64,000 nt of DNA from Tubiluchus corallicola (lineage: Eukaryota > Animalia > Priapulida). The stretch spans positions 343,673-407,672 of the forward strand of contig JAQGDQ010000197.1 of the NCBI GenBank assembly GCA_030141605.1. The letters are read 5' to 3'. Positions 16,749 to 41,495 of this stretch are shown here, piece by piece. Each line of letters starts with the position of its first letter. Positions within the stretch are counted from its first letter, which is position 1. The translations under genes were made by a program, and so were the position numbers. The notes beneath the pieces were generated by a model. The model worked only from the letters and a program-made list of their open reading frames with translations. It was not told the DNA's origin and ran no database searches.

Positions 16749-16874
16749 ATGGATGTGGCGGGGAGCGAGGGCGAGAAAGAACCTGTTCCCATGAATCTGG
16801 TGCGCAAGGAACGTGATTTGACCATTGACGAAAAGCGATTCCTTCTTGCAGTCGAACATGGGGACATGCCAAAG
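16749..16874 (+). CDS. trp-gamma: TRPC coding exon 1 ([42 protein letters not shown]); acceptor ttgtttcag ends at 16712, so 16713-16748 is 5'UTR
   Basis: Too short for the ORF track; translated by hand. [12 protein letters not shown] matches the first TRPC ankyrin motif. Donor AAG|gtattg, phase 0. Confidence 0.88.
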
Positions 16875-19800: not shown

Positions 19801-22333
19801 GATGCTTCTCTGCTTCCAGCCCGAAATCGAATCTCACGACCACCTGTATTGGCGCAAACAGTTGTTATTTGTATCATTTATTTGTGGCGTCTTAGTGTTG
19901 TTGTATTCGTTAACAGTCGCTTATAGTTGCCTATGGCTAATGTTGTCTGTTGTCCCAGCGACTCTCAATAAGTATCTTTGTCATTTGTCCTGTGTATATA
20001 CTAAAAGATAAGGTGATAGAAAAACAGCCAACAAGTGCTGAACAGCCAACAGGTGCTGAAAATTTAAAACAAACTATCAAAAACGTATAAACAAAGAAAT
20101 TTGTGAGGAGAACTGTGAATTTATGGTTTCAGGTACGTCGATGCCTAGCAAAGGATATGATATTGCATGTTATGATAATGTAAAAACTAGATAAAGATAG
20201 TTTTGTCAAATTTCTTCAAAAATTGGCACTGGTCTTTGACTTTCACAAATCAAATGACTGTCCACTGCAGATTTACGTTACAGTGAACAACTGCTCCATG
20301 TAATCGATGTAGCTTCGAACTAGAAAGAAGTCAGTGCGGGGAAATTAAGCAAAATGTTCATATAAAATGGCAGCTATAGTATCCCTACAGTCATCAAATC
20401 GTCGTATACTGTAATTGAGTTGTTATCTACAGTAATGATGTGTTCGTCAATACCAACTCACACAAATTTGGAGTATAGTGGAATTGTATATCATGTAGTG
20501 CCGGATTAAGGCATGGGCTTTATGGGCTGCAGCCCAGGAGTCTCCGCTAGCTGAGAGACCTTCACAGATTAAGTGAAACTAATTTACTGTGAAAAAGTTA
20601 CTGCAGAATGAGAGTAAAAGTATGCTGAATTATCTCTTTAAAGGGACTAATTTAATTAATATACGGTATAATAATATACTGGTATTATTTTTTTGTCCAT
20701 CATTCCAACTCATTGGTACTGCTGCACCAATAATTTATTTATTGTAATTTGTACGTATTATATTTAATATTTCAAAATACAAAAATATTTCTACATATCA
20801 GAATATCATTTCTCTTTTTGTTGTGCCAGACTTGCACCCATCTATTTTAGCCTAATGTTGGCATTATGTTATAGAAGTTGAATAAACTGATTTGAAGAAG
20901 CCAACATTCATGCTTTTGTCAATTGTCACTGGGGGTCGGGCCTCACAACGTCCTGTAGGAGCCTACAAAATCATAATCCGAGTTCAGAGTGGTGTGATAC
21001 CTAATAATAAAAATAATCCGCATTGTGGGCTCTAAAATCGCGTCGAAACAACGTGTTTGTAATTCTCATAACAAAATTTTATGTTTGCCGGGAGAAAAAT
21101 TGTAGATAACAGAAAAGTATGATTTGGACATTAAGTGAACGGAGATTTAGTGGAATTGACCAATGAAGGCTTGTATAGTTGACTTTAGCGAATTCTTAAT
21201 CAAAGCGAATTTAATCAGATACATCTAACAAAACACGTAGCAGTAAAATTGAGATTTGATCGCTCTTTCATCACTGACAGTGTTAAATTTTCTACCGCAT
21301 CGTCTGCAACTGCCCACTTCAGGCATTATTATTGATTAATCAAAACTTGTTCTACCACAAGACTGCTCTGCTTGCTTAATCCAAATTGGTTGCATGTAGC
21401 AGTGTTCTCAACCTCCTCCATTTAGACTATTCAGAACGAAATGGATTGCTAATGTGTGCGTGTAGAGAGGCATTAGCGTATGCTCTGAGACAGTGGCTTC
21501 GACAATGCCACCACCGATAATGATAATTAACCTTGTCACACGGTTTCGTTCATGCCCAGGAATGCATTGGATGCTTAGGTAGGTACAGCTGCAAGCCTAG
21601 GCTAGGCAAAAGTTCTCCAAATTCCCATCATGAGGCACAAGCATAGTGGATATACGATTGGTGTCTTATATATTAAGGCCATTATCACCAATGAGCGACA
21701 GCAACTACTCTCACAAGAAACGATATCTTACTATGCCATAATTAAACCTGTGCACTACAGTGCAGTTCATCCAACGAACTGCAAGGCAACTGTTTTATAT
21801 ACTTACAGAGCTTTTAAAACCTCACACGATGTCCAAGTATAGGAAGCCGTGTATTAGCGATTATTTTGTCTTTCAAGGTTTTCATGGCTCCATTTCATCT
21901 TGTTGTCTTCCACGGTCCGGTCTTTATGCTTCGTGTTCTTTATAGCATTTTCGTGAAGCCGCCAGACCCAAAGGGAAACGGAAATAATGGCACACACGCC
22001 ATGCTTTGTCTCATTTGTCACGTGAAATCTTTAATGATCAGTGCATCATAACGATGTGATTCTTTTGGGATTAAGCCGGAAATACTCCTGCATTATCGCA
22101 GTGCTGCTCAGAAACCAAAATCTACGACGATGAACTAATGGTTCCTACTATCCAATATAAATATCCTGCATGAGATGCGAATCCCCCAAATTTGCGGAAA
22201 TACGTCAGTTTGTTACTCGTTATTTCTCTTATGAAAATACTTTTGACTTTTCAACTCCCAGCACGAGCCTCAAAAATGAATACTTTTTTGTTTTGCAAGA
22301 AGAGGGTCTGAGGGAGGGAGGGAGGGTCTGAGG

Positions 22334-22397
<64 letters not shown>

Positions 22398-25300
22398 CGA
22401 CTGATTGTGCTATCTGATGGTAATTGCCTGGCTACTGTGAGTGAGCAGGCGCCTAAAAACCAGGAGGTAAGTCGACTGAAGCAATATATGTCCGCCTGAA
22501 AACCACTTATATTTTATTTATAGTTTTAATTTGTAGTACTTTATTATGGTAAATGTATATTTAGATGAACTGTATTACGAATCTAGGCCTTTCCGGGACT
22601 TTCATGCAGTGCAAAATGAAACTAGAGCATAGCTCGAGTATGTATCTGTATATATGTATAATACAAATATGCATATAATACACTATATGCATATTTCCTT
22701 ATACGTAGAGACTCTACAACATATGGTAGAGATTCAATTATTTGGTATTATATATCTTATAATACCAAATAACTGGGTCTCTACCATAATTGTTTCCTCC
22801 AGTCTACGTGACCATTTCTTAAGTAACATGTAGCTGACTGTTTATCTAACCTCGGCTTCTAAAGTGCAGGCACGCTAGGTGTATTTGCAGAAGCTAAGGT
22901 ATACAAGATCCACAAAATGCAGCCATGTGGGAAATTAAATGTCACTGTAATATATCTTACTGCATATTTGTTGTTCCCTGCTGTAATGTACACATGCTGT
23001 GGTCAACATGTTATTAACTAAGTTCAAATAGATTAAATTTATTAACAATCGCTATATATGTCTAATAATTATGTTGTGGGTTTACACAAAAAAACATAAG
23101 TGTTATTATGAAATAAACTGAAATTATAGCACCGATGTTATAATGTAGGCAGGCAAATTTATATATCGGCTGCGAACAGTAAATGGATTTTTTTCTAGGC
23201 ATTCATGATAGACTTCTGTGCAATAATGCTTAAAGTTAAAATACAAAAACCATAACAATTCTTAATTATCACTGTAATGGTCACTTTTTTATGAAAAAGG
23301 CGGAGTACTTTTTCTTTTTTTGAACTTTGTGTCTTTTATCTTACAGAAGCTTTCACCCTACCCGACCTCAGCAGCAGCAGAGTCTATACAGCTAATAAGG
23401 ATCCGCTAGGGTGAAAGCTTCTAAGAGAAATAAAAGTTATTATTTTAAGACTATGCAGTCAACGTTTTTTTATGCTAAAATGGTAAGTCTCATGAGAGCT
23501 CTTTCATATTTTAGGCCGTTATATATATTGACGCACAGCCGTATTACGCGCCAAACCTAATGATTAGACAACAAAATCCATATCTATTGTTTACCCAGCT
23601 TGATTTATCACTTGACCAACTTCATCTGCAAATACACGCTGGCTTCATTGCCTTGTTAATAAACCGTGTTGGCTTCGTTTTGTTGGCACATCATCCCACA
23701 GTTGTTAATCTTTGATTGTTTATACAAACGGCAAAAATAGGGCGTTTCAACGTAAACGTAGACGAATTAGGCAGAAACTGCTTCTTTTTATAAAAAAATC
23801 CCACAATTAAATTTACATTGTTTGTTTCATCTCTCCTTTTGAAACTTTTTAATTGTTTATGTTTCTTGATACAGATCTGACGATAAGAACTAGTGAATTC
23901 TTGAAACGTTGTCATGCAGTAATAAAAACTTTATGTATTAGTAGGATTTTGTGTAAAAATGCTTCCAGCTTATGAAGAATTTCGTAGTAATTCTTCTTTT
24001 TATAGTTTATAAATTCGGTGTCCAATAAAATAACTACCATTAATAATATTGCTTTGTATAAAAATGAAAAAGGTGTAAGGCATTGAATTATACTCCTATA
24101 TTAAAAATTTAAATATTTAAAAACCCAAAAAGCTGGCATTATCCTAGCGACTCACAATCCCAATGTCCATCCGTAGCAAAGAAAATAATCATTATTAATT
24201 AAGCTTTTTAGACATGTATTTTTACTGAGCTAATGATGTGTACACAACTAATTTTTGCTAACTTTCACAAAAATGTAACTGTGAACTACAGCTAATAGAA
24301 CTCGTTCGGTTTCTTTGCAGACGCTGAACCAGTTATAAAATGGCTGATTCTAGTAAGTTAGCGCGGGAGTTAGACTTTTTTAAGTTTTAACACTTCTCGA
24401 AATGGGAAGCTTTAAAATAAAGTTGAAAATTTCCACTTAGATAAGGTTTAGAATTTAACATAATGTAATATAATCTTTATTTCATCTTATCGCGCACACA
24501 TACAATTATAATGCAAATGATATTTTGAAAAACATATTGTAAGAAAATGCAGCGAAAAACCAATTACTCATATCTAGTCAGTTGCCTGTTGATTAGTGAC
24601 GATCATTTTGTTTGATGTTGTTCTATTACAGTTAATAATACGTTAATAATAAAAATTAATTCTTATAATATGACATTAAATTAATAAAATAAGGAACCAT
24701 AGTTCATTAGTGACAGATGAAATAATAATATATGATAATCAATTTGAATGTTAATTTGTTTGACTGAATTTTATAACGCTGTTTTGCAGGAAGCGTTTCC
24801 GCCGCCGCCTCCATATGAACAAGTTAGAGAGAGTGCCTTCACGTCAGATATTACGCCTATCATCCTCGCAGCTCACCGGGACAATTACGAAATCATTAAA
24901 ATTTTACTGGACAGAGGTGCGAGCATACCCATGCCTCATGACGTGCGCTGTGGGTGTGACGAATGTGTCCAGAACAACATGTCGGACAGTCTTCGACACT
25001 CGCGCTCTCGATTAAACGCTTATCGTGCCTTATCTAGCCCGAGCTTGATCGCCCTGTCGAGCAAGGACCCCATCCTAACCGCATTCGAACTCAGTTGGGA
25101 ACTCAAGTATTTGAGCGGTATTGAGAACGAATTCAAGATGGAGTATGAACATTTAGCGAAACAGTGTCAAGAGTTCGCGGCCGTCCTGCTCGATCAGACT
25201 CGAACTTCGCAGGAATTAGAGGTCATACTGAACCATGATACCGGCTCGAATATGTTCGATCAGGGCACGTCGGTGCAACAACCGCCACCTAACGACCGAA

Positions 25301-28300
25301 TGTGTCTCAGCCGACTTCGGTTAGCCATAAAATACAAACAGAAAAAGGTGAGCCTTTGAGGTATTCTGTTAGTTTCTTGAGATTTCAATTTCCGTGTATT
25401 TCAACTTGCAAATTGCAATTTCTGAGGCCAGCTACTAAAGGGTGTAACGTAATCATTTCTTGTGGGTGCTGAAACAAAAAACAATTTATTGCATAAAAAT
25501 ATTGCCCGTAATGAAAGTACAATCTACATCATCCATATTTCGTGTGAGAGCCTCGCATGTCTCGCACAGCCTACAATATTGAGGGGCATGAATGGAGACT
25601 CAAAGAGAACAGCTAGGGTTAAACTCGTGATAGTTCAACATATCCTGTAGATGTCTCCCAAGCTTGCCTTTTACGTCGATCAATGATATGTCTTTGGATC
25701 GTCTTAGCCTCCATCCTATCTTCATGATATCTCCAAGGTGTTCCGGTCCGGGGGTGAAGTCCGTCAAATTTTCAAGTCATAAATTTCAATTTGCCCCAAT
25801 CTCACCATCTCAACATTGCAGGATATGCTAGATACACAAGGTTTCGACACTAGATGTTGAGGGCACGATAGATTCTCAATTACCTGAATAGTACCTCTGA
25901 TGAAATAAATTGTTCTATACTATTACTTGTTTTTTTCACCCCTCCCCCGCCATACTTTACAGGACACAGTTTCAATGATCATTTTGCACTAATTTCATAC
26001 TTTTACAACTTTACGTTTTTTAATTGATATTTTCACTAATTGTTATTGTGAACATTAAACTAAAATGAATAGAAGGTTTCAGGCGCCTAGATAAAGCTCG
26101 TAACAGCTTAAATAAAAAGTTTTTTGTGAAAATGGATTTCTAAATGCATAGCAAGTTTGCTTCAATACAGGCTAATTTGCTTTAATTCCATGCATGGACT
26201 TCAATAGAAACAGCAACATCGCTAATTTTAGCCACTGTCAAGCAACTGCCATATGGAAGTGACATTTCTGTACATCTCGTTTCGTCACAAACCGTTTTTA
26301 GATGTGAGAAATACAAAATCGTATTGGTAATAATAAAACCAACTTATCGAGTGACATGAAGCCCATCTGAGAGTTCTATTAAACATATAGATGGAAAGGT
26401 TACATCGTCGACGATCCCTCACTCTCTACATGCACACATAGGAATTGTATTTGTGTGCGCGAGAGACGGAAGTCAAAATTCTTTCTCCTGCTAAGAAGAC
26501 TGACGTCATCATCTGGCTCTTGACATTTCAAGGTCGAAACTCTAAAAGTCACCTTTTACATATAACACAGTCTGTTGCCATATACGGTAAAAGTACGGTT
26601 AATTATCTCGATTTTTCATAAGGTTGTGTACTAGAATGCTCATTCAACTGTCTTACGTTGATGACAAATCACACAGCGGGATTGCTTTATTAACTGCCTG
26701 ATGAAAAATAATCGTTTCGTGTCTGAGTAGCAGCACTTTTCTGTTTTTGGCGTGTAAAACAAACAAGATCCTGACATATGTCAACAATTAAAAAATTTAA
26801 CAAAAATATTACGCGTAAAATATATCAAGTTACATCTCATAGTTGTGTCGCTTAAAAATACAAATACTATAATAAAATAATTGTAATAATATAATTAATT
26901 ATATTAAATTATATTATTTTTTTATATTAAATTATATTATAATTATATAATTTCATATTATAATAATTATAATATGAAAATATTGTAAATAGATTATTAA
27001 AAAACTAATACTTTTTTAACATTAATGAAATTTTTAAACTGTTGAGTGCACCTAAATTAATGCACTAGGGAAACTTATCTGTTCTGTAGAAGACATGTTT
27101 CTTACTTGTCATAGTTTTGATGTAATTTTTTGCTTTTTGCAATAAACTCATCTAAATTATAACTCAAATAACATTTCCAGGTCAAGGGTTTCTATTAGGG
27201 CAAATTACTAGACGCATGTTTCCTACGTTTCCAACGTCAATGAATTAAATGTCTCATATTAAATATTTATGCTACAACTGGTAAATTTTAAAAATATATA
27301 AGCTCTACCTAATTATTTACCTATTAAAAAATAAAATGTCACGAGATCCGGTTTAGATGCATACGAAGGGCATACAGTCTTAGTCTTACTTGTCAGTTAT
27401 ATATACCTTTCTAATCCGGAATAAATTGAAGCGTGCCCAAGAAACCTGAGCCACTTATTAGTCCGATTTCAAATCGTCCGATTTGCCGAGCAAACACGAA
27501 TTTGTGTTACTGGGCTTCAGTCTGTGGCTTCCTAACCTGACTTGTAATATAAGCACAGAACAGCTCACTGCCACTGTCTTCCTGATTTAACCTGTAATGT
27601 AAGCACTTAACCGGTTACTGGATTACTGCATTTTGCATGATGCGTTCCTGTAATGACAATGTGTCACATAGGACTTTCTGTCATTTCAACGTACCATTCC
27701 TTGTGAGTGGTAAATACGAAAGTAATTGCAGCTTGCATCTCAGTCTAATGTCTAACTGCAAACAATTACTTCCAGCAAATTGATGTAACATGATTTAAAC
27801 AATTTTTTGTCGAGATCGATTTTTTTTATTACTCGTGAAGTATTAATATGGGAAGAATGAAAACTATAATTTATTAGTCTGAATTCTGACCTCACCGTTT
27901 GCACAGTTTCAAATTGTGTAACGTTTGTGAACGTTTATTGGGTAGTAAAAAATAACCGAAGTTTACAGTCATTGGTTAAGCAGGCAAAAATAGATCTTAT
28001 ATAATTTATCACTCTGAAATCCTGAATACACCCTGAATACAAAAATTAATGATATAGTTAGTAATAATTAAGGAGTTAGGAACCTTTCTGAGCTACCAAA
28101 GCCCTTCTTTTATGATGGCATGGTGACCTAAGCGTCCAAGTTGAGATCCTTATTAGCAAAAGTCAATACGTAATGATACTGTTGAAATTACGTTTTCGGA
28201 ACCGAATTTTGACTTTTACGATAAACCTGTCACATTTAGGCCTACCGCTTTCTATAACTCTGTCGTTTCATTAATACTTTAACATTTTGGTTACAGTATA

Positions 28301-28530
28301 ATACTAACACATTTTTTGCTTATGCCGTCTTCCAGTTTGTTTCCCATCCAAACTGCCAACAACTGCTAGCTTCCATTTGGTATGAAGGTTTACCTGGCTT
28401 CCGACGACGAAATATCGTTTATAAGGCAAGTATTATCAAGTGCAAATATTATTCTAATAAAATCCGTCGTTAACCAAAAGCGAGATCATGTTTCGTAAAG
28501 CGAGGGCACTGAATGCTTTTAATGTGTGCA

Positions 28531-28583
<53 letters not shown>

Positions 28584-31500
28584 GTGTGTGCGTGTGTACG
28601 TATACATATATGCCTATACATACTATTAATATTATATTTAGAAACATATACATATATAGTTCTGTTTATACAGAAAAACGATTACTGTGCGACTTTGCCC
28701 AGTATAATGATTTTGCCTAGCCATTCATTAGTTTGATGGCAGCCATTTGAAAATCAAGATTGGTGTTAGTTATAAACAGAGTAATGAAATAATCACACAG
28801 TAAATTATAATCAATTAGTAATTAATAACCAGTCGCCTTGTAATATAGCTCGGCAACGTAACCCCGGGCTACACGATTGTCATCACTTCTAAAGAAAATG
28901 AAAAGTTAAAGGAAAACAGGATGATTTTTCATATACCCCACCCCATTTTGAAGTACGGTAAAAAGTTTATACTTTAAGACTTATAATAATGTCAAAGAAT
29001 GTCCGGTAATTACATACTTAAATAACGGCAAGGGAGTCCAACTAGTGATGATGTCACAACTGAATATAGTTTTCAACTGCACAAACATTCAACGAGCATA
29101 TTGCAAGGGTTTGAAAAAGCGAAAATTGAAGTACAGTGCTACTATACAACATTCAGTGCGATGTACAAAACTCATATGATTTTTTAATATTACCACTGTG
29201 CTCACGCATGAGCTCTCGAACGTGTGCACTACGTCACAAGTGAACAACGCTGAATTGAGAGGTAGGCCACCTGCTTTTTATGCAATTTGTTTGCGAGATG
29301 TAAGTGCTAGTGCCCTTCGAATTGCGAATGGCGAAATGAAAGTAACACAGAACAGAACTAGCCGCGCAAACGCGAAACTACCATTTCTTGGTAATCATTC
29401 TTTCACAAAAGTCATTCTTGAAAAAATAGCATGTTCCCTTTCACTATTTTACAAGGTCGATTGAGCCTAGTTTAAGATGGGGTCTTTTAAGATTCTTACG
29501 ATTCTTCGTACGAGTCTGTTAGTTAGCTAAAAACAATATCTGAAACGAGATTGCAGTTCCTCAATAAGCTGTGTGGCTCCTGATTAAAGCTTTCACAATA
29601 ATTTTTCATCGTTTTTGTTTTCAGTTATCCATGATTGGTGTCGTAGGGCTCATGTTTCCAATTTTTTCCATTATCTACATGATAGCGCCAAAAAGCAGCG
29701 TTGGTCGTATGCTGAGGAAGCCATTTATAAAGTTTATTTGTCACAGCGCCTCATATTTTACATTTTTATGTGAGTATTTTCTTTTTTCTTCCTTTTTCGT
29801 AACGACAAATCTAAATTTAGGTGCCAGCCAAGTTTGAATAGCGTTGCAATATCATGTACTTCATCATTTAAATAGTACACAATGCCATTCTAATTCCATC
29901 TGTGCCACATGAGATTTTCGTTCTTCAATTCTCTTCTTACATGCTAAAATCAATGTGTTTAAAAGCATGTAAGAGTTTGATTCATTTATTTTTGCACAGA
30001 TGGAAAGGTAGATGCGCCTTAAATGCTTCTCAGAAAGTGATTTATTAGAAAACTCCTAAACACGTGCATTTTGGCAAAAATAGGGTACCTAGCGTTGATG
30101 ACCTTTAAATTTTTATCAACACTTTTATCAATAGTTATCGCCGATCCATTATTGATTGTTATTGAATAAGATTGCAACAAAGTGCTAGAAAATATTAAAT
30201 AATCAACAAGACAGATTGCTGTACGTCAACAAAGGACATATACTAGAGACAAAATCCCCTTACAATGGAGCACAATAAAGGGATTTGTTTGTTTGTCATT
30301 TTGTCTGCCTATTAACTGTATATCGGCGGGTCATTGGGTCTCTGTCTGTCGGTAGGTCAGTCGGTTTCTGTCTGTTTGTCTGTCTGATTAAAAGACTATA
30401 TGTTTCATACTTTTACTTTAGTGTTTTGTCTTTAACGTGAGCTTTTTTGCAGTTTTTTTAATATTGGCATCACAGAGGATAGAGTCAATTATCAGCATAG
30501 GAGAAGAAAACATTCCAGACCAGGAACCAGACAATAGCTCCTCTACGCCTACTTACAAGAATGAACGTCGCGGTGCCCCTGCCACAAGCATAGAATGGAT
30601 GATAATGGCGTGGGTCTTTGGTAAGAATCGGCGTATTTGCTTATTTGTCTATTTGTCTGTCTGTCCGTTTCTGTTTGTGTTTTCCCGCTGGTGGATAGCT
30701 TGTTAATTTGTTGCTAGAGTCTGTCTTATTTCTTAGGCTGTTTTTTTATTTGTTTCTTGGATTTATTATGACAAATTTAAATGCTGGTATTAGAACATCT
30801 TATTCGGAACTCATTCTGTGAAACGTTTTCTTGGCACTTCGAAGTGGAAGGGATTTTTTCACACTAAAGTCGAACAGACACCTTACTTATTACCCCATCC
30901 ATCAATCGGTGCACAACAATAAGGATACTAATCTGTACGCTCATGCTTTACTTTCTCTCAGGTTTAATATGGATGGAAATTAAGCAATTATGGGATGATG
31001 GATTGTGGGAATACGTTCACGACATGTGGAATATTCTAGATTTCATTACCAATGCGCTTTATTTGGCAACTATAGCACTACGTACTTGTGCCTACTTCAT
31101 GGTATGTATTAAAGTCACTTAAGATTTTGAAATAAATTTATGCCGCATTGCTTATCGACAGTGCAAAAGTGATTTTCTCAAGCCACGTTGCATATATTTT
31201 TTATAATTGCGCAAGAACAAACGAACAAGCGAAGATTAAACGTTTGTAAGCAAAACTATCCCACTTTAAAGTTATATTGTAAATGATTTATTGGGCATTA
31301 AAACTATCAATTATTTATTGGTATTAAAATTTTTGTTATTGTTAAATTTCAGTACACTATTGTATACAATTTTTACCTTGAATCCACAAATTTTGCAGGA
31401 CCGTTGCATCCACCCGAAGACATTGCGTTTGTTCGTTGAAAGTCTATTATGTACAACACATTTGTAAAAATGTGCGAAATGCTTTATTTGCTTCAAAACA

Positions 31501-34500
31501 CGAGAAACTGCACTATGAAGCCTTTCAATTACAAAAGTAAATTCGCAAAAAATATTCATTTAATTAACTGTAACATTCATTCTTGCTTCCAGAGCTCACA
31601 AGCGATAGGGATTAGACTGTAGACTGTATTTTGCAATAATGGTGAATACATACCCAGCATTTAATGACGTTGTAAACTCAACAGTTAATTAGTTGCTTAG
31701 AGGCTGCACATTAAAATTTCAGCCTTTGATTTACGGCTGCTTTGTCCGCTTTTCTAAGCAACGAAGTCCCCAAATACCGTCTTTCTAACATCCCATTTAG
31801 ACATGCACATCAGGCAGGCAGGCAATGCCCTATAACAAGAAATTTTTTATAATTTGAATATTAAGGTCTGAAAAAAGCAATACAAAACTGGAAGACCGTT
31901 ATAGTAAAAGGAATTGAAAACACCATACATGGTATAAAGCAACATGACTCAAGCAACTGTAAGCCATTGAATCTATAATTATAAAAAAGATAAAATCTTT
32001 AGGAAATATAAAAAATAAAAAAGGAGATACACTGTGTTATGATGGGCAGTGAAATCTTCGGGTTTCAGTAATTGGGCCTACTGCTTATTAGCCGTCCACC
32101 AGAGACTATACTCTCTAAGCTTGTTATCTATGCTGATTATCCTAAGCCTACACTATCTAACTCACTACGAGTAAATAACTCGCATGGAAGCCTTGAAAAT
32201 GATCTTGAGTTGGCTTTGAACTTTAGCCAAGATTAGCTTGTCACCTTTAATGCAAAGAGGATGAAGCTTATGTCAGTAGTGTGAAACTTCTTAGAAATAC
32301 ATTTTCCGTCGAGCCTTCTACCGTATTTTTTGCCAGAAGTTTTTTCCTTGCTAATTACAACCTCAAGAAAGCGCTACAATTATTAGACAATTAATTATTT
32401 AAATTGAGTTTTATCAACTTACGCTTAGAGGCGGAATTAATTGAGTCTGATAGGCAGCGATCGAAACGTGCCATGATCACATAGGTGCAGTATGGTAGGT
32501 GCATTTTGGGAGTCCGTAAAGTGATTTAACAAACTGTTTGATTTTTGCGCACAAGCAGACGTCTTCAAATCTGTAGTGCCTTAGCGAACTTACCCTTGCC
32601 GCACATATACTTGTGCTTGCGTAAATCATTAATGTATGATTGATGCGTAGGTCAAATCTGGTGAAATAGGCTTAACACTTTCTGTAACAGAAACTTTTTT
32701 CTCTCTTAGGTCGAACAAGAAAAGCTTGAGGGTAAATGGGAAATGGCCATGGCTCCCCGCAAAGACTGGGACGCTTACGATCCTACTCTCATCTCAGAGG
32801 GTTTGTTTGCAGCAGCAAATATATTTAGTTCTTTGAAGCTTGTACATATTTTCACCGTAAATCCTTATCTCGGACCGCTTCAAATATCGCTAGGTAATCA
32901 AATTTTACTCTATGTACTGGTCATGAAACAATGTATTTATTCAAAAGCTATTTCTTTGCGCAATCATAATTTAGTCAGCAAAACCGCGAAAAGAAATTTA
33001 TTATTTTTACATAGAATTCCTGCAAATAATTGTAAGGTATTATGTGAGTACTAAATTTTATGTACAGATGTCAAATTCATCTTTGTATGTATTTTCTTCT
33101 TTAGGTATAAGTTATTTACATAAATTTGATACAAATTTCTTTCCACAATTTTGCTGACTATACTGTAACATTGTGTATTTTGGCGTCTATAAATAGTTGT
33201 CGTCGAACTGACGCAGCTGAGAAGGGCCGATGGGCTGAGCCACAATAGGGCAAGTAGGTGTGGGGCGAGACATTAGGGTGGAATAGGATGAAATTGGAAT
33301 GGATTGAAAACTTTGGATGGTGTGAATTAGGGTGGCATGGATTTTTAACTGCATAAGTTTTCATATATAAGAAAAACTGCATCAGAAATTTGAACAACTA
33401 CTTAGATAGTTGTAATAAACAGGACGTGGCTGTACATTGTGTACAATTCATACATTGTGCACAAGTTTCTTAATGAGAATAGCTGATTTTTGTAACTCGG
33501 ATTAAGGTTTTCTAAAATGGTATTTAGCCCTAAAATATTACGTGTTTTATATAATATTATTACCTATAATAATTTTTTTATTTCATATGTTTTTGAAGTT
33601 TTTTCTTATTACCTACTTGCAACAGTGATAGAACAGTAGAAAAACTGCAGACAGTTTGCAGGCATATTCACTTATTATTAATGATAATATGCGAATTTAG
33701 TAATTATATATCAGTCTTGTTTGTTATTTTGTTCTAGGTCGAATGGTTTTTGATATCATGAAATTTGCTTTCATTCTTGCTCTTGTGGTGTTTGCTTTTG
33801 CTTGTGGTCTGACGCAACTGTATTGGTATTACGCCACCATGCGAGCAGACGAGTGCCTCAGGGGTGGTCCTGAAGATTCTTCCTGTGATAAAAAATATAA
33901 GAGTTTTTTAAAGTAAGTGTACAATGGTAAATATGGCGCGACGACTTTAGTTACTCTGTGTATGTATATTATATAGCTCTTCCTGATAAAAGATGAGTAG
34001 ATCGTCTTTCTAGTACTTTCTTTCAATCAACGTTTGACTCTGGTAAGGAATCTTGTGATTTCAGCAAACGATTTTGCATTTGCTATTTCCTAAGTACCTA
34101 TCTAAGATTCCGAAGAAAAATCATTTCTGAGTGCTACTGCTACTGCTGCTCGTATCTAAAGATTATTAGAATCGTTTTCACTTTTTGCTCTTATTATGTT
34201 TGCTGCAACAAGGTGTTCCTTCTGTTAGACTGACCTATGTATCATTAACTTTTAATGTGGTTTACAGACAGTGTAGTATTAGACTTATTTAGAACATGGA
34301 CTTATGCCCCAAACTGTACGTTGCTGATGATAGTACATTTTCCCGCTAATGAGTAATTCAGTGTAACAGAAACTATTCATTGAAATCCTTGTAAACATTT
34401 TCAGTAATTTTCAATTCATTGAGATCTTTTTAATACATTGTGAACATATTTTCTAAAATGTAAACCTTAAAACTGTACAGTAAATCACACTAATTTTCTT

Positions 34501-34972
34501 TGTATATGTGAGGAGCGGTGCACAAGTAATCCAAAAAGGAACTGACTATGCAATACAATAGCTATATTCATTTTCTCTATGAGCGCCCCAGCCCCATAGA
34601 ATAAAATTTCAGTAGCGTAACCATAATAACGAAGAACTTTTAAAGCTTTAGAAATATATCTTTTACAGAAACTTTTAGAGAAATCTTTTTAATGAATTTT
34701 CCTCTATAAAACAGTATTACACAGCATTTATGCGCAGTATTCCACAGTATTCATGAGGAATTTTATTTACGCTTTGTATTGTCGCTGTTTTAAGATATCC
34801 CATTTTGCATCTTTATACTTTTACCTATGTAAATATACAATGATTTTAGGTGTTAACTGTAGGTCTTATTTTCCTTAATATTTTTGGTATTGACTAATTA
34901 TTTTACTATTGTCAGTGTCTTGCTGAGAAGCAGTGTAGCGCTGTAAAAATTTATTATTATTATTGTTGTTGC

Positions 34973-35006
<34 letters not shown>

Positions 35007-38000
35007 ATATCGTCAATACAGAATTTCTGTAATGATTTCGTAAATTCTAAAAAATTGTGTATTTTTATTTACTAGTTAAGTAATATGCATTGATAAAGCA
35101 CAAATCTATTATGCTGATTATACTAAATCTATTATACTGATTTTACTAAATTTTATCTGTTTCCAGCTTGTTCGAGACATTGCAGACCTTATACTGGGGT
35201 CTGTATAATTTGATCGACTTAGATCGGTTTGACTTGAAGGAAAATCACACCTACACAGAGTTTGTTGGACTCCTTATGTTCGGCTGTTACTCGGCCATTT
35301 CTATTGTAGTCCTTTTGAATATGCTCATAGCTATGATGTCCAACTCATTTCAGTACATTGCTGTAAGTACAGCAAATTCACTGTGCAAAGTGTGCAATGT
35401 GCACTGGTTGACCTCACTGTACTTATGTTGTTGTTATCTGCACACTTAAACTACCGGGCTTTGAAATGTCAAAGTTTTTTCATGTCGGTACAGTTTATGA
35501 CTGAAATTGAAAGAAAATTATATCCTTTTCTGAGCTATTTTTTATTTCAAAATGTTTTCAAAGCTCAAATTTATATTTTACAATGAAAAGATCCTCTCAT
35601 TTTGGAGGTGCGCATTTCAATGCCTAGTAGTTATTCTTTAGCAGCACACGTAGTGATTGTACTTTACTCCTTGTGTAGAGCTTCACAGTAGGCGTTTCCC
35701 GCGTTTATAAGGGCTTGTTTTCAATTTATTTGGTTTTATTTCAGTTTGTTTGAGACTCTGCAGACTCTGTACTGGGGCCTTTTCAGTCTGGTAGATCGTT
35801 CGCACTTTGATCTACTAGAAAATCACGAATACACGGAATTCGTAGGCCTGTTGATGTTTGGTATTTACTGTGCTATGTCGATAGTGGTGCTTCTGAACAT
35901 GCTGATTGCAATGATGTCGAATTCATATCAGTTCATAGCAGTAAGTTGCTATGCCAACCGTCGCATGTCTATCCATCTTTACCTTCAGCTTGTTTCTTGC
36001 ACCAGTTGACTTAAAGCTATGGGGAATTTAAGTATGCGATTCGTCAATCTTACCTCACACAAGCGTATAACCAACATAAGAGACATGAAAAAAACAGCTT
36101 AAAATTGCGTCATTACTGATGCATAAATAAAAATTTCATTACTTACAATATTAACATGACACTTTTCTTTGTAAAGCTGTACGTAAATCAAAACAGAAAT
36201 AGAACTTTACCGTGTACATGATCAGTAGGTCCTAAATTATAACTAAATACTGTTGACTTGCTTTGCGAATAACTTGTATTATTGAAAGAAATAACTTTTA
36301 TTAAAAACTTTAAATTGCAAAATACTAAAAAATGTCAAACGTTTCGACTGCAGAGCCTAACAGTCATCTTCAGTGTGTAACAACTAGCTGCTTTTGTATA
36401 CTGTATCACACTGAAGGTGACTGTTAGTCTCTGCAGTCGTTATATGCTTTTAATGTTTTATATTTTAAAGTTTTTAATAATAAAAATTGCTTCTTTCAAT
36501 AATACTGACTTGTGCTTATTAAGATAGTTCTAAATTTGATAACGTTTTCTTTTCTTATGCAAACACGACATTTCAGCTGTACAGCGGCCTTTTTCAAATG
36601 AAAAATGTCGTTTTTGTGTAACAAATTAGCTTTCGTGGTATTCATGATTGATACTTTGGTATATTAGTGCAAGGGCATATGTAATTCCATGGGAAATTCA
36701 TGTTAATTTTTGATGCTACATATTATGTAAAGCTTGCGATGAGTATATTTTAAAAAATAAGATGTAATTTTTTAAGCAATTTTAACTCAAATATCAAAAT
36801 GGCTGCCGACTGTTGGAGCTTCTATATTCTTAATTCTATATTAAGTGAAACTAATTGTTCAGATGTTTAGTTACAATGCCTGTTAGTGTCCATAAATGAA
36901 TAAATCTCACAGCGAAACATCTCCTTGGCTAAGCCGCGTGCCCCTACAACCCACACAACACCATGGCAACAATCCAAACTGCTCCACAACAATAACCAAC
37001 ACCACATGACACAACGACGTTGGTGAGGTTGAACAACACCGACGACAACAACAACAACAATGACAACAACGACAACAACAACGAGGACAACAACGACGAC
37101 AACGACGACAACAACGACGATGACCACGACGACGACCATGACGACGACCACGACGACGACGCAGTAGCGAAACCATGCAAAAACATTTTGCCCAATATTA
37201 AAAGTGTATATACAAACGCTATTAGACCGATCCACTAATGATCAATAATGCACGACATTCAACATAGTCTTTCTTTACTACTTTTCAGATGGTAACAAGC
37301 TAACATATACAACTTATTATAGCTCTTTCTATAACACAAATGAAGGTGATGACACAGTGGTTGATGACAATACCTTTCCCATTTGCCAGCAGTGGATATC
37401 TCTTTAAACGAAACATCCACACCTTACAGATCTGCCCATTCTTTTTCTGATAGTGTGTATAATTATTTTCTTCCAAGACGCGCAAACAGCACTTCGAGTT
37501 TTCTTGAGTCTGTTTGTGCAGAAACCGCTGATCGCCACAAACCACGGGTCTATCACGAAATTTAATTATGCCTATTACACTCACCACTGAATGGATTCCC
37601 AACCATTATTGGCGCGACACCGGCCCACCCCTTTCTCTCAAACTAAGGACTATAAGTTTTGTGAAAATGGCGATTTTTGAAGGTTTTCGTCGCCTGTTCC
37701 TCCCGGTAGCCACGATTCAAAAGGTAAGCAATCGATAGGAGTACACAAATCAAGACCTTTCATTTGATATGTAGAAGTATAGATCTATAGATCACCAACA
37801 AAGGCGCAGCCCTTGAAGCTGCAGTTGCGGCAGTTACATAATAGAATAGCAATGGATAGTGGGGAGGGATACAGATAGAGCATAACCAAGATGGTATTAC
37901 ACTAACGCTAACAGGTATTACAACTAGATATCTAAACTAAAGTCTATTTTCACTTAATTAGAAGCAAGAATATATCAACTTGAACAGTTGGCAGCCATCT

Positions 38001-41000
38001 TGGATGCTATCTTGAATTTTGAGCTTACATTTGTTAAAAAATGAAACCACATTTTTGCAATGTACACGTCATAATCTTTAAAGTGATATATACAGTAGCA
38101 TCAAAAATTAACACGAATTTACCATAGGACCAAATAATCGTACATATGCTACTACACAGTATTGTTTGTTTTTCATTTATTTATTTCCTTATTTATTAAT
38201 GTTTATCCAAAATATTCCTTAAGCATGTATGCTTGTTATTTTCATGTTTAGTAATACTAGAGCATGTTTTACTCAAGTTGCTTATTCATTAAAGTGTAAG
38301 TCTGTGGGTAAAAACTTGATATTAAAGAAAAGTGGTACATTTTTCACCAAGTTCCGAAAGGCAGGTGGCAATAATGAGTTTCTCTGAAGAAAAACTGTCA
38401 GCGAACATGATTAACATCATTTTTGTTGCCAAGTTTACCACCCGTAATCACTGATACATGCGTCTAGACAAAAAACCCACTCCTGGTTAAATTACAAAAG
38501 TCAGCGGACTTGTAGTGAGGATGTAAAATGATCCCTGTCTCTGTTAAACGAACTGTTAAACTGTTCGATTCAATTCCATAATAAATTGTGTTTAAACAAA
38601 GTATGTAGATGCATTATTGATGTTACTTTGATTATAAGAATCATCACGTTAGATAAAAAGATTCTCTGTAACCTATGCATGCATTTGGTGTTGGGTCTGA
38701 TTAGATTTAGATTTCTCACCAGTTTTTAGTTTTTAGCTAATCAGTTTATCAATTACTTGTGTAAACCACAGGCACCACTTCTTTCATGGTGAATAAACAA
38801 ATTATATAATACCCAGCCAACGGCCACTCTTGCAATTAGAAAAATATACAAATTCTCCATAAATTATTGCTTCTGCTTATTCTGCTTAAATATTTTCACA
38901 AATCTAATTGACTGAATGTTGATTAAAACTGTCACTTTTTGCGTTTCCTGGATCAATTGCTTATTTGTTTGTTTCATTCTTGCAGAATCAAGCTGATTAT
39001 GAGTGGAAGTTTGCACGTTCCAAGCTTTGGATGTCTTATTTCGAGGAAGGAGGAACGGTGCCGCCGCCTTTCAATATCATCCCCAGTCCCAAGTCCGTGT
39101 ATTACCTGCTGAAATGGTTTTACCAGAAAATTTGTAGCTGTTCCACTAAACAGAAGCGAACTCGCTGGAAAAGTCTCAGAGTAATTTTTTACATTTAATC
39201 GCTCCCCCCCAACCGTCTAGCGCTTACAAAACTTCAGTGACACTTGAATTAACAGAAATAGGGTTTCGCTTGTTTTACCTAACTATTTCACCCCAGAAGG
39301 TTTTTTTTTGAATAAGCAGATATTGTTTGCATACTTGCGATCTTACAGTTTCTAGAACATAAGAAACTTGATTAGACTACTGTGCTATCACTATTCCAAC
39401 AAACGTTCGTATTGTTATAGTGAAATCGATTTAGTTTGTTTGTTTCATTTGTTTCATAAAACAGTAAACCTAAAATATGCAGACAATTGTTATTTTTCTC
39501 TCCTCTGGTCCTCTGGATTACTGGCCCAAAAATATTTTTTCTACAGACTATTCCAATAGCTACAATCTACAGCAAATACTATGAGGCTATCACTATTATA
39601 ATATAGAAAATCAAATCAAAATGGTCGTATCAAGTTACATGATGGGAAAACTGGAATAATGACGTAAAACTATTTATGCCTTTATAATGTCATAATGCAG
39701 AAGTGCAGGTCCATTTCGTCGTGCTTCGTAATATTTCTATTACACCGCTTCTTTTAGAACATCCTGTAAGATTGTTAGAACACCCTTTTATTTTTGTCAT
39801 GCATTATTGGGCATTTCTGTGACCAGTAATCATTACAAGAAGCTTTCCTTTTTTGGTTATATCTTAGACTTTAAATAAGCATTTCTTTCACAGAAATTTG
39901 TGCGAAAAGTCAGTGAAAGAGACGCTCGCTATCAAGCGGTTATTCGGAGTCTGGTGAAACGTTACATTACTAACATGCAGCGACAGCAACAACACCAGGG
40001 AGTCAACGAAGACGACATCAACGAGATAAAGCAGGACATATCTTCATTTCGATATGAACTTTTAGAAATACTCAAGTATAGTGGAATCTCAGGCCCACCC
40101 GGGGAACGCAAATCGAGTTAGTATTGATTTGAAAACTCAGGCCCTCATTTCTAATAAAGCAAAACTTACCGAAAAAATCTTATCATTAAGAAAGATGTTT
40201 CAGACTGTCGCTGGAATTTATCTTTTATGTGAAAGAATAAGAAAGAAGGAAGGAAAAAAGATAACAAAAAATTACTATACTAATTTAGGGGGGAGTTTTT
40301 ATATTGTCAACACACAAAGCTATCAGACTAAAAATAATACGACCACGTAGAAAAACAAAGAAGCACAGCAAATAAAAACAGAAGGGAAAAACACGGAAGT
40401 ACAAAATCACTGTCTACAGTATATAAGAGTGAAACAACGAGTTTTTTTATTTTAACTTACAGACCTATGAGTACTCAAGTTTATTTCAGGAGATAAAAAG
40501 TGCTATATAAAAGTTAAAATTTACACTAAAAACTGAGAAATACTACATGTCATGCACTATTAAAAGAGCTATGAAAATTTACAAAAACATAATAAAAATA
40601 TTTACGGAATTTAAAAATACAAAGCATCAGTTAGAAAACCAGCGGTTTCTACATAAAAAATCATGACATCTTCTAAATATTTTACTATACAATCGCACAT
40701 CTGTTTGGTGGCATATATGATTTACAATAAAATTTTTATCTGTCAATTACAAGCACTAACATTTAATTTGTTTCAGCAATGAACAAGAAAAACCGGCTAC
40801 AAGAACGTCGACTGATGAAAGGTTTAAATCTGGAGCGAAACATTGAAACCATCCCGGAACAGGATTTCGATCTTCCAGATTTCCTCAAAACCGATTACAA
40901 AAAGGGACGACCCCGGCATTCTCAAAGTGTTAAAAGATTTACTCATCTATCTCGATTTCGAATAGGAAGTAGAAAAGGAAAGGCTTCAGCGGCTCAACAA

Positions 41001-41495
41001 TGGGACGACCTCATTTCAACAGTACGTGCACAAAGACAAAAAGAATGCATTAAGAAAACTCAAAGTGCCTCGCTAGATAGGCAGTCCACATTAGAAACAG
41101 ACACTAGTTTTTCCAGTGATCCTAACCTTGTACGTGACACAGACAACACGGTTCAAGTTGCAAGTGCATCAGCTCTGGCTACAGCTGTGGGGTTGCACGC
41201 AGAACCAGGTTTGAAACTTCGCCGTACAGTTTCTCAACCTCCTCTGAACAATTCCGGTTCCTCTCCATTTAACATACAACCTAGTAGCTCAGATACGACG
41301 GACGTTCTTCAGTCTGAAGGGCCAAAGCGCGTCACATTTGAGTGGAAAAATTCTGTTGAACCTCAGACTGTACAATATGTTGAACCGGACCATAAGTACA
41401 CCAGCGTTCCCAGTACGTCTGTTGGGCTAAAGAAACGCAGTTATGGCGCAACAGTGACCAATGGTGACCAAGAGCCATCTGATTCTCCCTCCTGA
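16749..41495 (+). CDS. trp-gamma: TRPC-family (canonical transient receptor potential, TRP-gamma-like) cation channel gene; 13 coding exons per isoform, ~1058 aa; join(16749-16874,18657-18914,24790-25347,28336-28425,29625-29769,30453-30620,30962-31101,32710-32893,33738-33912,[35167-35362 | 35745-35940],38986-39180,39894-40116,40777-41495)
   Basis: Ankyrin repeats ([46 protein letters not shown]), TRPC Zn-binding motif [75 protein letters not shown]4-S5 [12 protein letters not shown]6 [14 protein letters not shown] box [21 protein letters not shown], coiled coil [18 protein letters not shown] and ERRLMKG. All exon phases match and lengths sum to 3177 nt. The TRP-gamma orthology is from remembered motif similarity and needs a phylogeny. 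Confidence 0.93.
18657..18914 (+). CDS. trp-gamma: TRPC coding exon 2 (ankyrin repeats)
   Basis: tttcag|GTG AAG ... GAC GGG|gtaagt; 258 nt, phase 0/0; inside ORF 18510-18923. Confidence 0.93.
19306..19760 (+). mobile_element. Decayed Tc1-family transposase fragment in TRPC intron 2
   Basis: [32 protein letters not shown] and IFMQGGAP...SLDLNPI match Tc1 motifs (FSDESR, FMQDGAP, SPDLNPIE); interrupted by a stop and frameshift. Confidence 0.8.
22337..22397. repeat. (GA)n microsatellite
   Basis: Direct inspection. Confidence 0.97.
24790..25347 (+). CDS. trp-gamma: TRPC coding exon 3 (ankyrin 4, Zn-binding TRP_2 domain, linker helices)
   Basis: ttttgcag|GAA ... AAA AAG|gtgagc; 558 nt, phase 0/0. 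Confidence 0.95.
28336..28425 (+). CDS. trp-gamma: TRPC coding exon 4 ([30 protein letters not shown]), followed by a GC donor
   Basis: ttccag|TTT ... TAT AAG|gcaagt; 90 nt. Only the GC donor keeps frame with exon 5. Confidence 0.9.
28528..28580. repeat. (GCAC)n(CA)n microsatellite
   Basis: Direct inspection. Confidence 0.95.
29625..29769 (+). CDS. trp-gamma: TRPC coding exon 5 (pre-S1 elbow, start of S1)
   Basis: ttttcag|TTA TCC ATG ... TTT TTA T|gtgagt; phase 0/1; contains [17 protein letters not shown]. Confidence 0.93.
30453..30620 (+). CDS. trp-gamma: TRPC coding exon 6 (end of S1, S1-S2 loop, start of S2)
   Basis: ttttgcag|TT TTT TTA ... TTT G|gtaaga; phase 1/1; LILASQRIE ... [11 protein letters not shown]. 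Confidence 0.92.
30962..31101 (+). CDS. trp-gamma: TRPC coding exon 7 (S2-S3: [47 protein letters not shown])
   Basis: ctctcag|GT TTA ... TTC ATG|gtatgt; phase 1/0; translated by hand, not in the ORF track. Confidence 0.93.
32710..32893 (+). CDS. trp-gamma: TRPC coding exon 8 (S3-S4 loop, S4, S4-S5 linker)
   Basis: ctcttag|GTC GAA ... CTA G|gtaatc; phase 0/1; [21 protein letters not shown] ... LGPLQISL. Confidence 0.93.
33738..33912 (+). CDS. trp-gamma: TRPC coding exon 9 (S5 and extracellular turret: [58 protein letters not shown])
   Basis: gttctag|GT CGA ATG ... TTA AA|gtaagt; phase 1/2; translated by hand. Confidence 0.92.
34951..35006. repeat. (TTA)n(GTT)n microsatellite upstream of exon 10a
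   Basis: Direct inspection. Confidence 0.93.
35167..35362 (+). CDS. trp-gamma: TRPC exon 10a (pore helix, selectivity filter, S6), alternative copy A
   Basis: ttccag|C TTG TTC GAG ... ATT GCT|gtaagt; 196 nt, phase 2/0; [65 protein letters not shown]. Confidence 0.93.
35745..35940 (+). CDS. trp-gamma: TRPC exon 10b (pore helix, selectivity filter, S6), alternative copy B
   Basis: tttcag|T TTG TTT GAG ... ATA GCA|gtaagt; 196 nt, phase 2/0; [65 protein letters not shown]. Confidence 0.93.
36276..36505. repeat. ~230-bp intronic inverted repeat (hairpin) downstream of exon 10b
   Basis: cgactgcagagcctaacagtcatcttcagtgtg pairs with cacactgaaggtgactgttagtctctgcagtcg; the outer arms gtattattgaaagaa / ttctttcaataatac also pair. 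Confidence 0.85.
37032..37161. repeat. (AAC/GAC)n degenerate trinucleotide microsatellite
   Basis: Direct inspection. Confidence 0.93.
38986..39180 (+). CDS. trp-gamma: TRPC coding exon 11 (TRP box and proline-rich TRP domain)
   Basis: cttgcag|AAT CAA ... CTC AGA|gtaatt; 195 nt, phase 0/0; [32 protein letters not shown]. Confidence 0.95.
39894..40116 (+). CDS. trp-gamma: TRPC coding exon 12 (rib/connecting helix and coiled coil)
   Basis: ttcacag|AAA TTT GTG ... AAA TCG A|gttagt; phase 0/1; [13 protein letters not shown] ... [19 protein letters not shown]. Confidence 0.9.
40777..41495 (+). CDS. trp-gamma: TRPC terminal coding exon 13 (cytoplasmic Ser/Thr-rich C-terminal tail)
   Basis: Branch-like cactaac upstream, then tttcag|CA ATG AAC; phase 1 matches exon 12; [15 protein letters not shown] resembles the insect TRP/TRP-gamma tail; 238-aa open frame to TGA. 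Confidence 0.88.

Follow-up and report, generated by a model that had tools for sequence, protein, structure and literature searches.

In the invertebrate cation channel NALCN, tandem mutually exclusive exons (15a/15b and 31a/31b) encode pore helices and filter, and the exon 15 and exon 31 pairs are separate duplications in different lineages (Senatore et al. 2013, PMC3557258). In invertebrate Cav3 channels, the alternative near-pore exons 12a and 12b change Na versus Ca permeation while the main filter ring is unchanged (PMC4436565). In the TRP channel TRPM3, splicing of the pore loop (alpha1/alpha2) alters pore and drug properties (PMC9290681). The TRPC channels of invertebrate photoreceptors range from barely Ca-permeable to strongly Ca-selective (PMC3250099). 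We analyzed a 64,000-nucleotide stretch of DNA from Tubiluchus corallicola (contig JAQGDQ010000197.1, positions 343,673 to 407,672; its whole length is called the window), and found a TRPC gene with two tandem copies of the exon that encodes the pore, exons 10a and 10b. We think it probable that this gene splices in either pore exon, giving two TRPC channels that are predicted to differ in the chemistry of the filter and outer mouth.

Two pore exons in one TRPC gene

The features needed here are as follows (window coordinates).

33738..33912, + strand: exon 9, constitutive, encoding the fifth transmembrane segment (S5) and the S5-pore turret; phase 2 donor
35167..35362, + strand: exon 10a, encoding the pore helix, the filter Tyr-Asn-Leu-Ile-Asp, the outer loop and the sixth transmembrane segment (S6) through the lower gate
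35363..35744, + strand: intron between the copies, 382 nucleotides, with a 9-nucleotide complement of the 10a donor at 35417-35425
35745..35940, + strand: exon 10b, encoding the pore helix, the filter Phe-Ser-Leu-Val-Asp, the outer loop and S6; has the splice joint to exon 9
38986..39180, + strand: exon 11, encoding the TRP box (EWKFAR) and TRP helix; phase 0 acceptor

Each copy encodes a pore helix, filter, outer loop and S6. Both are 196 nucleotides long and of phase 2/0, and they lie 382 nucleotides apart. The acceptors are TTCCAG (10a) and TTTCAG (10b), and both donors are GTAAGT. The copies are identical at 52 of 65 residues and at 132 of 196 nucleotides, with no indels and no stops, and 34 of the 52 codons for identical residues differ by synonymous changes. 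Our recount confirmed all of these values for length, spacing, splice sites, phases, identity and silent codons, which had first been given in a reading of the DNA letters without database searches (the sequence-only reading).

The divergence of the copies supports an old tandem duplication in which both were kept under purifying selection. By the method of Nei and Gojobori, the proportion of synonymous differences between 10a and 10b (pS) was 0.94, which is saturated and beyond correction. The corresponding nonsynonymous proportion (pN) was 0.139 and the nonsynonymous distance (dN) was 0.154. This estimate is pairwise, 10a versus 10b, and not per branch. The contrast of pS 0.94 with dN 0.15, with lesions in neither copy, bears out the same proposal in the sequence-only reading. 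Using tblastn, we found exactly two copies of the pore exon in the window and no duplicates there of 11 other coding exons (the last exon was outside this test).

The reading frame permits one copy per message. Exons 9, 10a and 11 are open when joined, as are exons 9, 10b and 11. In contrast, joining 10a to 10b gives Phe-Val-stop (TGA at 35751-35753), and skipping both copies shifts the frame of exon 11, with a stop at 39110-39112, 68 nucleotides before the next junction. That is, the one-of-two logic that had been claimed for this locus holds. We suggest that 10a or 10b would be spliced in, one per message, on an identical channel body. Because double and skipped messages carry early stops, exclusivity is likely imposed mainly by quality control, with such messages removed through nonsense-mediated decay, which is the simplest means of enforcement. 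The frame logic and the silent divergence are well outside chance expectation and do not match what alleles or a slip in assembly would produce.

Differences in the filter and outer mouth

The pore exon maps without gaps to residues 568-632 of TRPC5. In TRPC5, the pore helix is 569-580, the filter is 580-584 with its constriction at G581, and the gate is I621/N625/Q629. Lanthanide potentiation involves E543 and E595/E598, and the G581A mutant loses activation by Gd3+ (PMC6656536). N584 sets Ca permeability, and N584D doubles the permeability ratio of Ca to Na, PCa/PNa (PMC7565274).

We found that the two copies differ at several of these sites. Exon 10a has Asn and exon 10b has Ser at position 14 (TRPC5 G581), where 182 of the 188 distinct segments compared have Gly. 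Besides 10a and 10b, the segments without Gly are those of the genomic open reading frame (ORF) P0005 and of Terebratalia, and a single copy from each of two other pairs. We take the missing glycine in both copies as a departure within the TRPC1/4/5-TRPgamma group and not as grounds for excluding them from it. Positions 18-20 are Leu-Asp-Arg in 10a and Arg-Ser-His in 10b, and position 28 (TRPC5 E595) is Thr in 10a and Glu in 10b. Arg at position 18 and Met at position 44 each occur in 1 of the 188 segments. Within positions 13-31, the basic residues are two Lys/Arg and one His in 10a, and one Lys/Arg and two His in 10b. A sequon, Asn-His-Thr, is present in 10a only. Its use is unlikely because it lies three residues before S6.

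The sequence-only reading had placed eight of the 13 substitutions in the filter and outer vestibule. Eight of 13 do fall within positions 13-28 of the exon, more than a uniform spread would give (P 0.0015). The clustering was still real once the variability of 26 relatives had been used as weights (expected mean 4.6, P 0.017), yet it partly reflects general variability of the region. The 11-residue gate segment is identical in the two copies, as had been stated; S6 nevertheless differs at positions 40, 42, 44, 61 and 63.

Several findings weigh against channels with different permeation. Position 17 (TRPC5 N584) is Asp in both copies, the three lower-gate residues are Ile/Ser/Gln in both, and each copy has five acidic residues in positions 13-31. 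Nine of the 13 differences are at sites that vary among relatives (pairwise divergence 0.41-0.89). In addition, the roles of TRPC5 residues may not hold when carried by analogy to an invertebrate channel. Because the Asp and the gate are the same in both copies, a large switch in selectivity is less likely than tuning. The altered permeation and the mixed tetramers put forward in the sequence-only reading are at this point predictions.

It is also possible, although we consider it rather unlikely, that both exons are used but give pores with almost the same permeation, the pair being kept for divided expression or for contacts of S6 in gating or with lipids or drugs. The shared Asp, gate and acid count fit this idea, as do the five of 13 differences that fall in S6 and the unchanged filter Gly and Asp in the pairs from abalone and Owenia (below). 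In contrast, near-equivalence does not readily account for changes at sites where relatives hardly vary (14, 18, 44 and 61) or for the clustering in positions 13-28, and G581A alone alters activation of TRPC5 (PMC6656536).

If either exon is spliced in, as we favor, the channels would differ at the narrowest position of the filter (Asn or Ser), at positions 18-20 and at the E595 site. The predicted effect is a tuning of conductance, of the Ca fraction and of sensitivity to protons or trivalent ions, and not an all-or-none switch between Na and Ca.

Exon use in transcripts

Exon 10b is used with 10a skipped. A 162-nucleotide contig from run X2 joins 33912 to 35745 at GT..AG, with 58 nucleotides on the short side; this was one of the junctions that the sequence-only reading proposed to look for. 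Run X2 has no RNA record and was assigned by species label, and its RNA nature was judged from its splice joints. Further joints in the TRPC gene connect 28425 to 29625 (28423 to 29623 fits equally well), 29769 to 30453, and 40116 to 40777. X2 behaves as spliced RNA of the TRPC gene from a slightly different individual.

The same run provides points against the use of both exons. The sole X2 contig at the junction of exon 9 with the pore skips 10a, and no transcript containing 10a was found in X2, the sole RNA-like run, in which just a few short contigs cover the gene; we do not read this gap as a sign that 10a is silent. Indeed, 10a is likely to be used as well, at other stages or in other cells, based on the signature of selection, the short branch of 10a in the exon tree (0.093, compared to 0.23 for 10b) and the 10a-type exon in P0005.

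Use of 10b alone, with 10a as a relic that is silent or nearly so, seems to us improbable. It would explain why the one junction seen skips 10a, and the 10a donor has two possible masking pairings (below). However, even with synonymous sites saturated, 10a is free of stops and indels. It has the shorter branch of the two copies, its type is present in P0005, and there are clear branch-point-like motifs upstream of it. The sparse coverage of the gene in X2 also makes the missing junction less telling.

Run X1, possibly the source of the window itself, has DNA contigs that agree with 35164-35377 and 35619-35900 at every position. Although no listed X1 contig spans both exons, an assembly artefact or two alleles set in tandem is hardly credible, since the copies differ at 64 of 196 nucleotides, for the most part silently, their flanking introns do not resemble each other, the spliced X2 contig passes from exon 9 to 10b over 10a in register, and other animals have the same layout.

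Pore-exon pairs in other animals

A search of relatives found the same exon paired in abalone, Owenia, Mytilus and further genomic ORFs. The RefSeq TRPgamma-like isoforms X1 and X2 of Haliotis rufescens (XP_046352623.1 and XP_046352628.1) and of H. cracherodii (XP_071086924.1 and XP_071086926.1) are 1034 amino acids each. Within each species, X1 and X2 have 12 differing positions. These lie entirely in residues 603-665, the part encoded by the pore exon; the rest is identical. H. asinina isoforms X2 (1034 amino acids) and X3 (1018 amino acids) have the same two pore versions. The Owenia models P0012 and P0018 have 12 differences in the pore exon and eight in a second short segment, and Owenia P0003 and Mytilus coruscus P0004 have both pore copies in one model. 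The filter Gly and Asp are kept by both members of each abalone and Owenia pair.

The second segment in Owenia (P0003, P0012 and P0018, residues ~738-751) also comes in alternative versions; it is 14 residues long and directly follows the TRP helix region. No second copy of a segment of this type was found in the window intron 39181-39893.

The sequence-only reading knew of no described pair of whole-pore exons in a TRPC gene. We found no description of a pore-exon swap in TRPC or TRP genes in the literature searched, which covers few subscription papers, and absence from print is not established. The abalone RefSeq isoforms, which like the Owenia and Mytilus models are automated predictions with no description found, already carry such a pair. 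Variants of a Limulus TRP mRNA are announced in the title of Bandyopadhyay and Payne (2004; pmid 15525336); if these are pore-exon swaps, a swap of this kind in a TRPC gene would already be published.

We also searched 1.84 billion representatives with a profile of the pore exon and considered the best 150 of 1513 matches. Among the matches listed, genomic ORFs with two copies take four of the top five places and one lower place (P0201, P0202, P0203, P0006 and P0218). In the genomic ORFs P0203, P0352 and P0218, the two pore exons in tandem are of the arthropod TRP/TRPL type. P0203 groups with arthropod TRP in the exon tree, and the P0218 sequence is of the same type. Duplication thus appears to have touched another TRPC paralogue as well. 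The 526-residue ORF P0284 has at least seven tandem S6-like segments and may represent either a repeat or an enlarged exon array.

The exon in P0005 is 83% identical to 10a, has the same Tyr-Asn filter, and groups with 10a (support 98/83). Because of this grouping and filter, the 10a type appears to be kept in another organism or gene. A point against our interpretation is that a 10b-type orthologue with Ser-Leu-Val-Asp-Arg was not found, either among the best 150 of 1513 profile matches or among the 188 segments. The brachiopod Terebratalia (P0019) has a Tyr-Asn filter like that of 10a.

In 19 groups, a single pore version was found among the members listed, although protein lists cannot exclude a second genomic exon. 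These groups were Gordionus, Lingula, scallops, Ruditapes, Mya, oysters (15 of 108), Biomphalaria, Paramacrobiotus, Steinernema, Macrobrachium (15 of 24), Octopus (two members), Pomacea, Patella, Physella, Aplysia, Daphnia (15 of 17), a mite, a barnacle and damselflies. The pore segment was also single in the insect and crustacean TRPgamma isoforms examined. P0023 from Dendroctonus has two identical segments 835 residues apart, indicative of doubling of the whole gene, and was left uncounted.

A filter residue other than Gly was present in 4 of 14 paired copies and 0 of 26 others (p 0.011) without Terebratalia and P0005. With Terebratalia (Asn) added, it was present in 4 of 14 and 1 of 27 (p 0.039). 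This gives only a hint that loss of the glycine is tied to pairing, as the rows are related and single status is unproven.

Origin of the duplication

The duplication likely arose in the lineage of the window separately from the annelid and mollusc pairs. In an exon tree of 44 rows and 65 columns, in which the bootstrap had not settled, copies mostly grouped by lineage (Owenia 95/91, P0202 99/96, P0346 92/16). The window pair grouped with two other exons (96/64), and the Mytilus and abalone copies were unresolved. Both abalone copies carry a gastropod insertion of two residues. In approximately unbiased (AU) tests with the window, Owenia and Mytilus, a clade of upstream copies was rejected (p 0.0003), as was a clade of downstream copies (p 0.006). 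An earlier idea of two ancient classes, upstream and downstream copies told apart by the E595 site, was weakened by these tests.

Other points weigh against separate origins. AU tests with the window and Owenia only did not reject the two clades (p 0.059 and 0.061), the exon offers just 65 columns, and an appearance of independent origins could be produced by gene conversion. It is conceivable, but in our view doubtful, that there was one duplication in a protostome ancestor, followed by gene conversion that homogenized the copies within each lineage, and by loss in many groups. This would fit pairs being present in an annelid, a bivalve, gastropods and the likely ecdysozoan of the window, and the E595 site being Thr or Val upstream and Glu downstream in the window, Owenia and Mytilus, as well as the unrejected clades of the window with Owenia. 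In contrast, the grouping by lineage, the insertion shared by the abalone copies and the rejection of position-based clades that include Mytilus argue for separate duplications. In addition, synonymous saturation between 10a and 10b speaks against recent conversion, and neither the P0346 nor the P0202 pair carries Glu at the E595 site.

Splice choice

RNA folding gave a candidate hairpin at each donor.

35358..35375, + strand: candidate 7-bp hairpin across the 10a donor, with the exon end paired to intron positions +7 to +13
35934..35953, + strand: predicted 7-bp hairpin with GTAAGT of the 10b donor as the loop

The 10b hairpin was reached by 5 of 2000 shuffles and had a pairing probability of 0.87-0.99 in two window sizes. 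The 10a hairpin was reached by 10 of 2000 shuffles; it was weak in wider folds (pairing probability 0.03-0.14), which counts against a role for it. A perfect 7-bp stem is present at the donors of both pore exons, with different letters in each, and at 0 of the 11 other donors of the gene. Of the 95 GTRAG sites that the window has on its + strand, 2 carry such a stem by the same criterion, which was set after the folds were seen. These donor hairpins may, if the modeled folds form, help to set exon choice.

The 9-nucleotide complement to the 10a donor was reached by 20 of 2000 shuffles, and its pairing probability (at most 0.16) was too low for us to retain it as a mechanism. The intron between the exons had a folding z score of -2.1. 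A 382-nucleotide intron is likely too long for simple steric exclusion. Given its length, the ordinary GTAAGT donors of both copies, and the AG-free zone of 31 nucleotides before 10b, spliceosome incompatibility and steric blocking are unlikely. We also set aside pairing of docking and selector sites: the long inverted repeats in 33900-39000 (25 of 120 considered) were mostly TTG/CAA simple repeats or lay wholly downstream of 10b. Rfam gave two weak matches only, far below gathering scores.

Just upstream of 10a, a 23-nucleotide direct repeat (35102-35156) doubles branch-point-like motifs; there is no such motif in the 60 nucleotides upstream of 10b. A (TTG)n tract before 10a (34951-35008) and a (CAA/CGA)n tract after 10b (37032-37167) are ~80% complementary over 50 nucleotides. 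Their pairing would loop out both exons, and they are probably chance simple repeats. Intron 10 also has a near-perfect 38-bp hairpin (36345-36439) and longer inverted arms (36678-36838 with 37959-38136), which resemble small inverted-repeat transposons.

These elements can be combined in a wider proposal, which we put forward tentatively. The pore exon would be a hotspot of repeated duplication (in this lineage, annelids, bivalves, abalones and the arthropod TRP/TRPL type) in which the filter glycine was freed. Splicing would exchange Asn and Ser filters with different sites for protons and trivalent ions, mixed tetramers would grade the pores, and copy-specific donor hairpins would make the choice.

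The host gene

The remaining parts of the gene are listed here.

16749..41495, + strand: TRPC1/4/5-TRPgamma-like gene, 13 coding exons per isoform, 1058 amino acids with either pore exon
16749-16874, 18657-18914, 24790-25347, 28336-28425, 29625-29769, + strand: exons 1-5 of the gene model
30453-30620, 30962-31101, 32710-32893, + strand: exons 6-8 of the gene model
39894-40116, 40777-41495, + strand: exons 12-13 of the gene model

Four full-length relatives matched collinearly in tblastn over 16749-40118, with exons 1-12 in order. The ankyrin region, six-helix core, TRP box and C-terminal coil are collinear with those of known members of the TRPC1/4/5-TRPgamma group. Whichever copy is used, the model is free of internal stops. 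Its acceptors are all AG, and its donors are GT with one exception, the GC donor (GCAAGT) of intron 4 (28426-29624), an intron whose splice joint is spanned by a run X2 contig. The pore exon aligns without gaps to structures of vertebrate TRPC4 and TRPC5 and Drosophila TRPgamma (5z96, 6aei, 9vqq; E-values 1e-15 to 1e-19), and the pore match was 69-72 bits to TRPC4/5 and TRPgamma structures compared to 42-45 bits to TRPC3/6/7.

In full-length trees, the window protein fell among invertebrate TRPgamma-like proteins, beside that of the nematomorph Gordionus (Shimodaira-Hasegawa-like approximate likelihood ratio support 91 in a quick tree; 97/98 in a 21-row tree), and outside the spiralian and arthropod groups. 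Placement is loose, as these trees had no priapulids, kinorhynchs, onychophorans or invertebrate deuterostomes. The position of the gene is likely that of a non-arthropod ecdysozoan.

High-copy repeats are present in introns 4 (~28900-29450) and 12 (~40490-40710), where the depth of run X1 contigs is in the hundreds to thousands. Downstream of the gene, near-identical open frames at ~51500-53800 and 56500-58450, ~5 kb apart, suggest a local duplication or a repeated element.

Comparison with known systems

The pair in the window is one instance of an arrangement that is found repeatedly in the TRPC genes of invertebrates. Annotations that choose one exon, or that fuse both (as in P0003 and P0004), hide or distort such pairs. 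The structural basis of Ca selectivity in TRPC channels is known from few mutants only, and two natural pores on one channel body would be a ready test of the filter constriction, of the residues after the Asp and of the E595 site. If repeated duplications hold, tuning of pores by exon swapping extends from the four-repeat channels NALCN and Cav3 to tetrameric TRP channels, in which mixing of subunits adds a level.

Like TRPM3, the window gene would be spliced in the pore of a TRP channel. In TRPM3, two donors of one exon add 12 residues, with no duplicated exon and no swap of pore helix or S6 (PMC9290681). A change in loop length of that type is absent here, as 10a and 10b are of equal length. 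Like Cav3, the alternative exons lie at the pore. Cav3 swaps a turret that differs in length and number of cysteines (PMC4436565), whereas the TRPC turret is in constitutive exon 9.

The likeness to NALCN is one of design: tandem exons, here predicted to be mutually exclusive, over pore helix and filter of an invertebrate cation channel, with duplications that were, here probably, separate in separate lineages. NALCN exchanges E and K at a key filter site in one repeat of a four-repeat chain (PMC3557258). In contrast, the TRPC filter Asp is kept; a charge reversal of the NALCN type at the key selectivity residue is absent, with Asp in both copies at the site equivalent to N584. The TRPC swap also covers all of S6, and a separate choice could occur for each subunit of the tetramer.

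Unlike TRPC5, the window gene has Asn or Ser at the G581 site and Asp at the N584 site. The models from abalone, Owenia and Mytilus coruscus have the same exon in two versions, probably from separate duplications, and both versions keep the filter glycine. What appears distinctive of the pair in the window is that both copies replace this glycine, each with a different residue.

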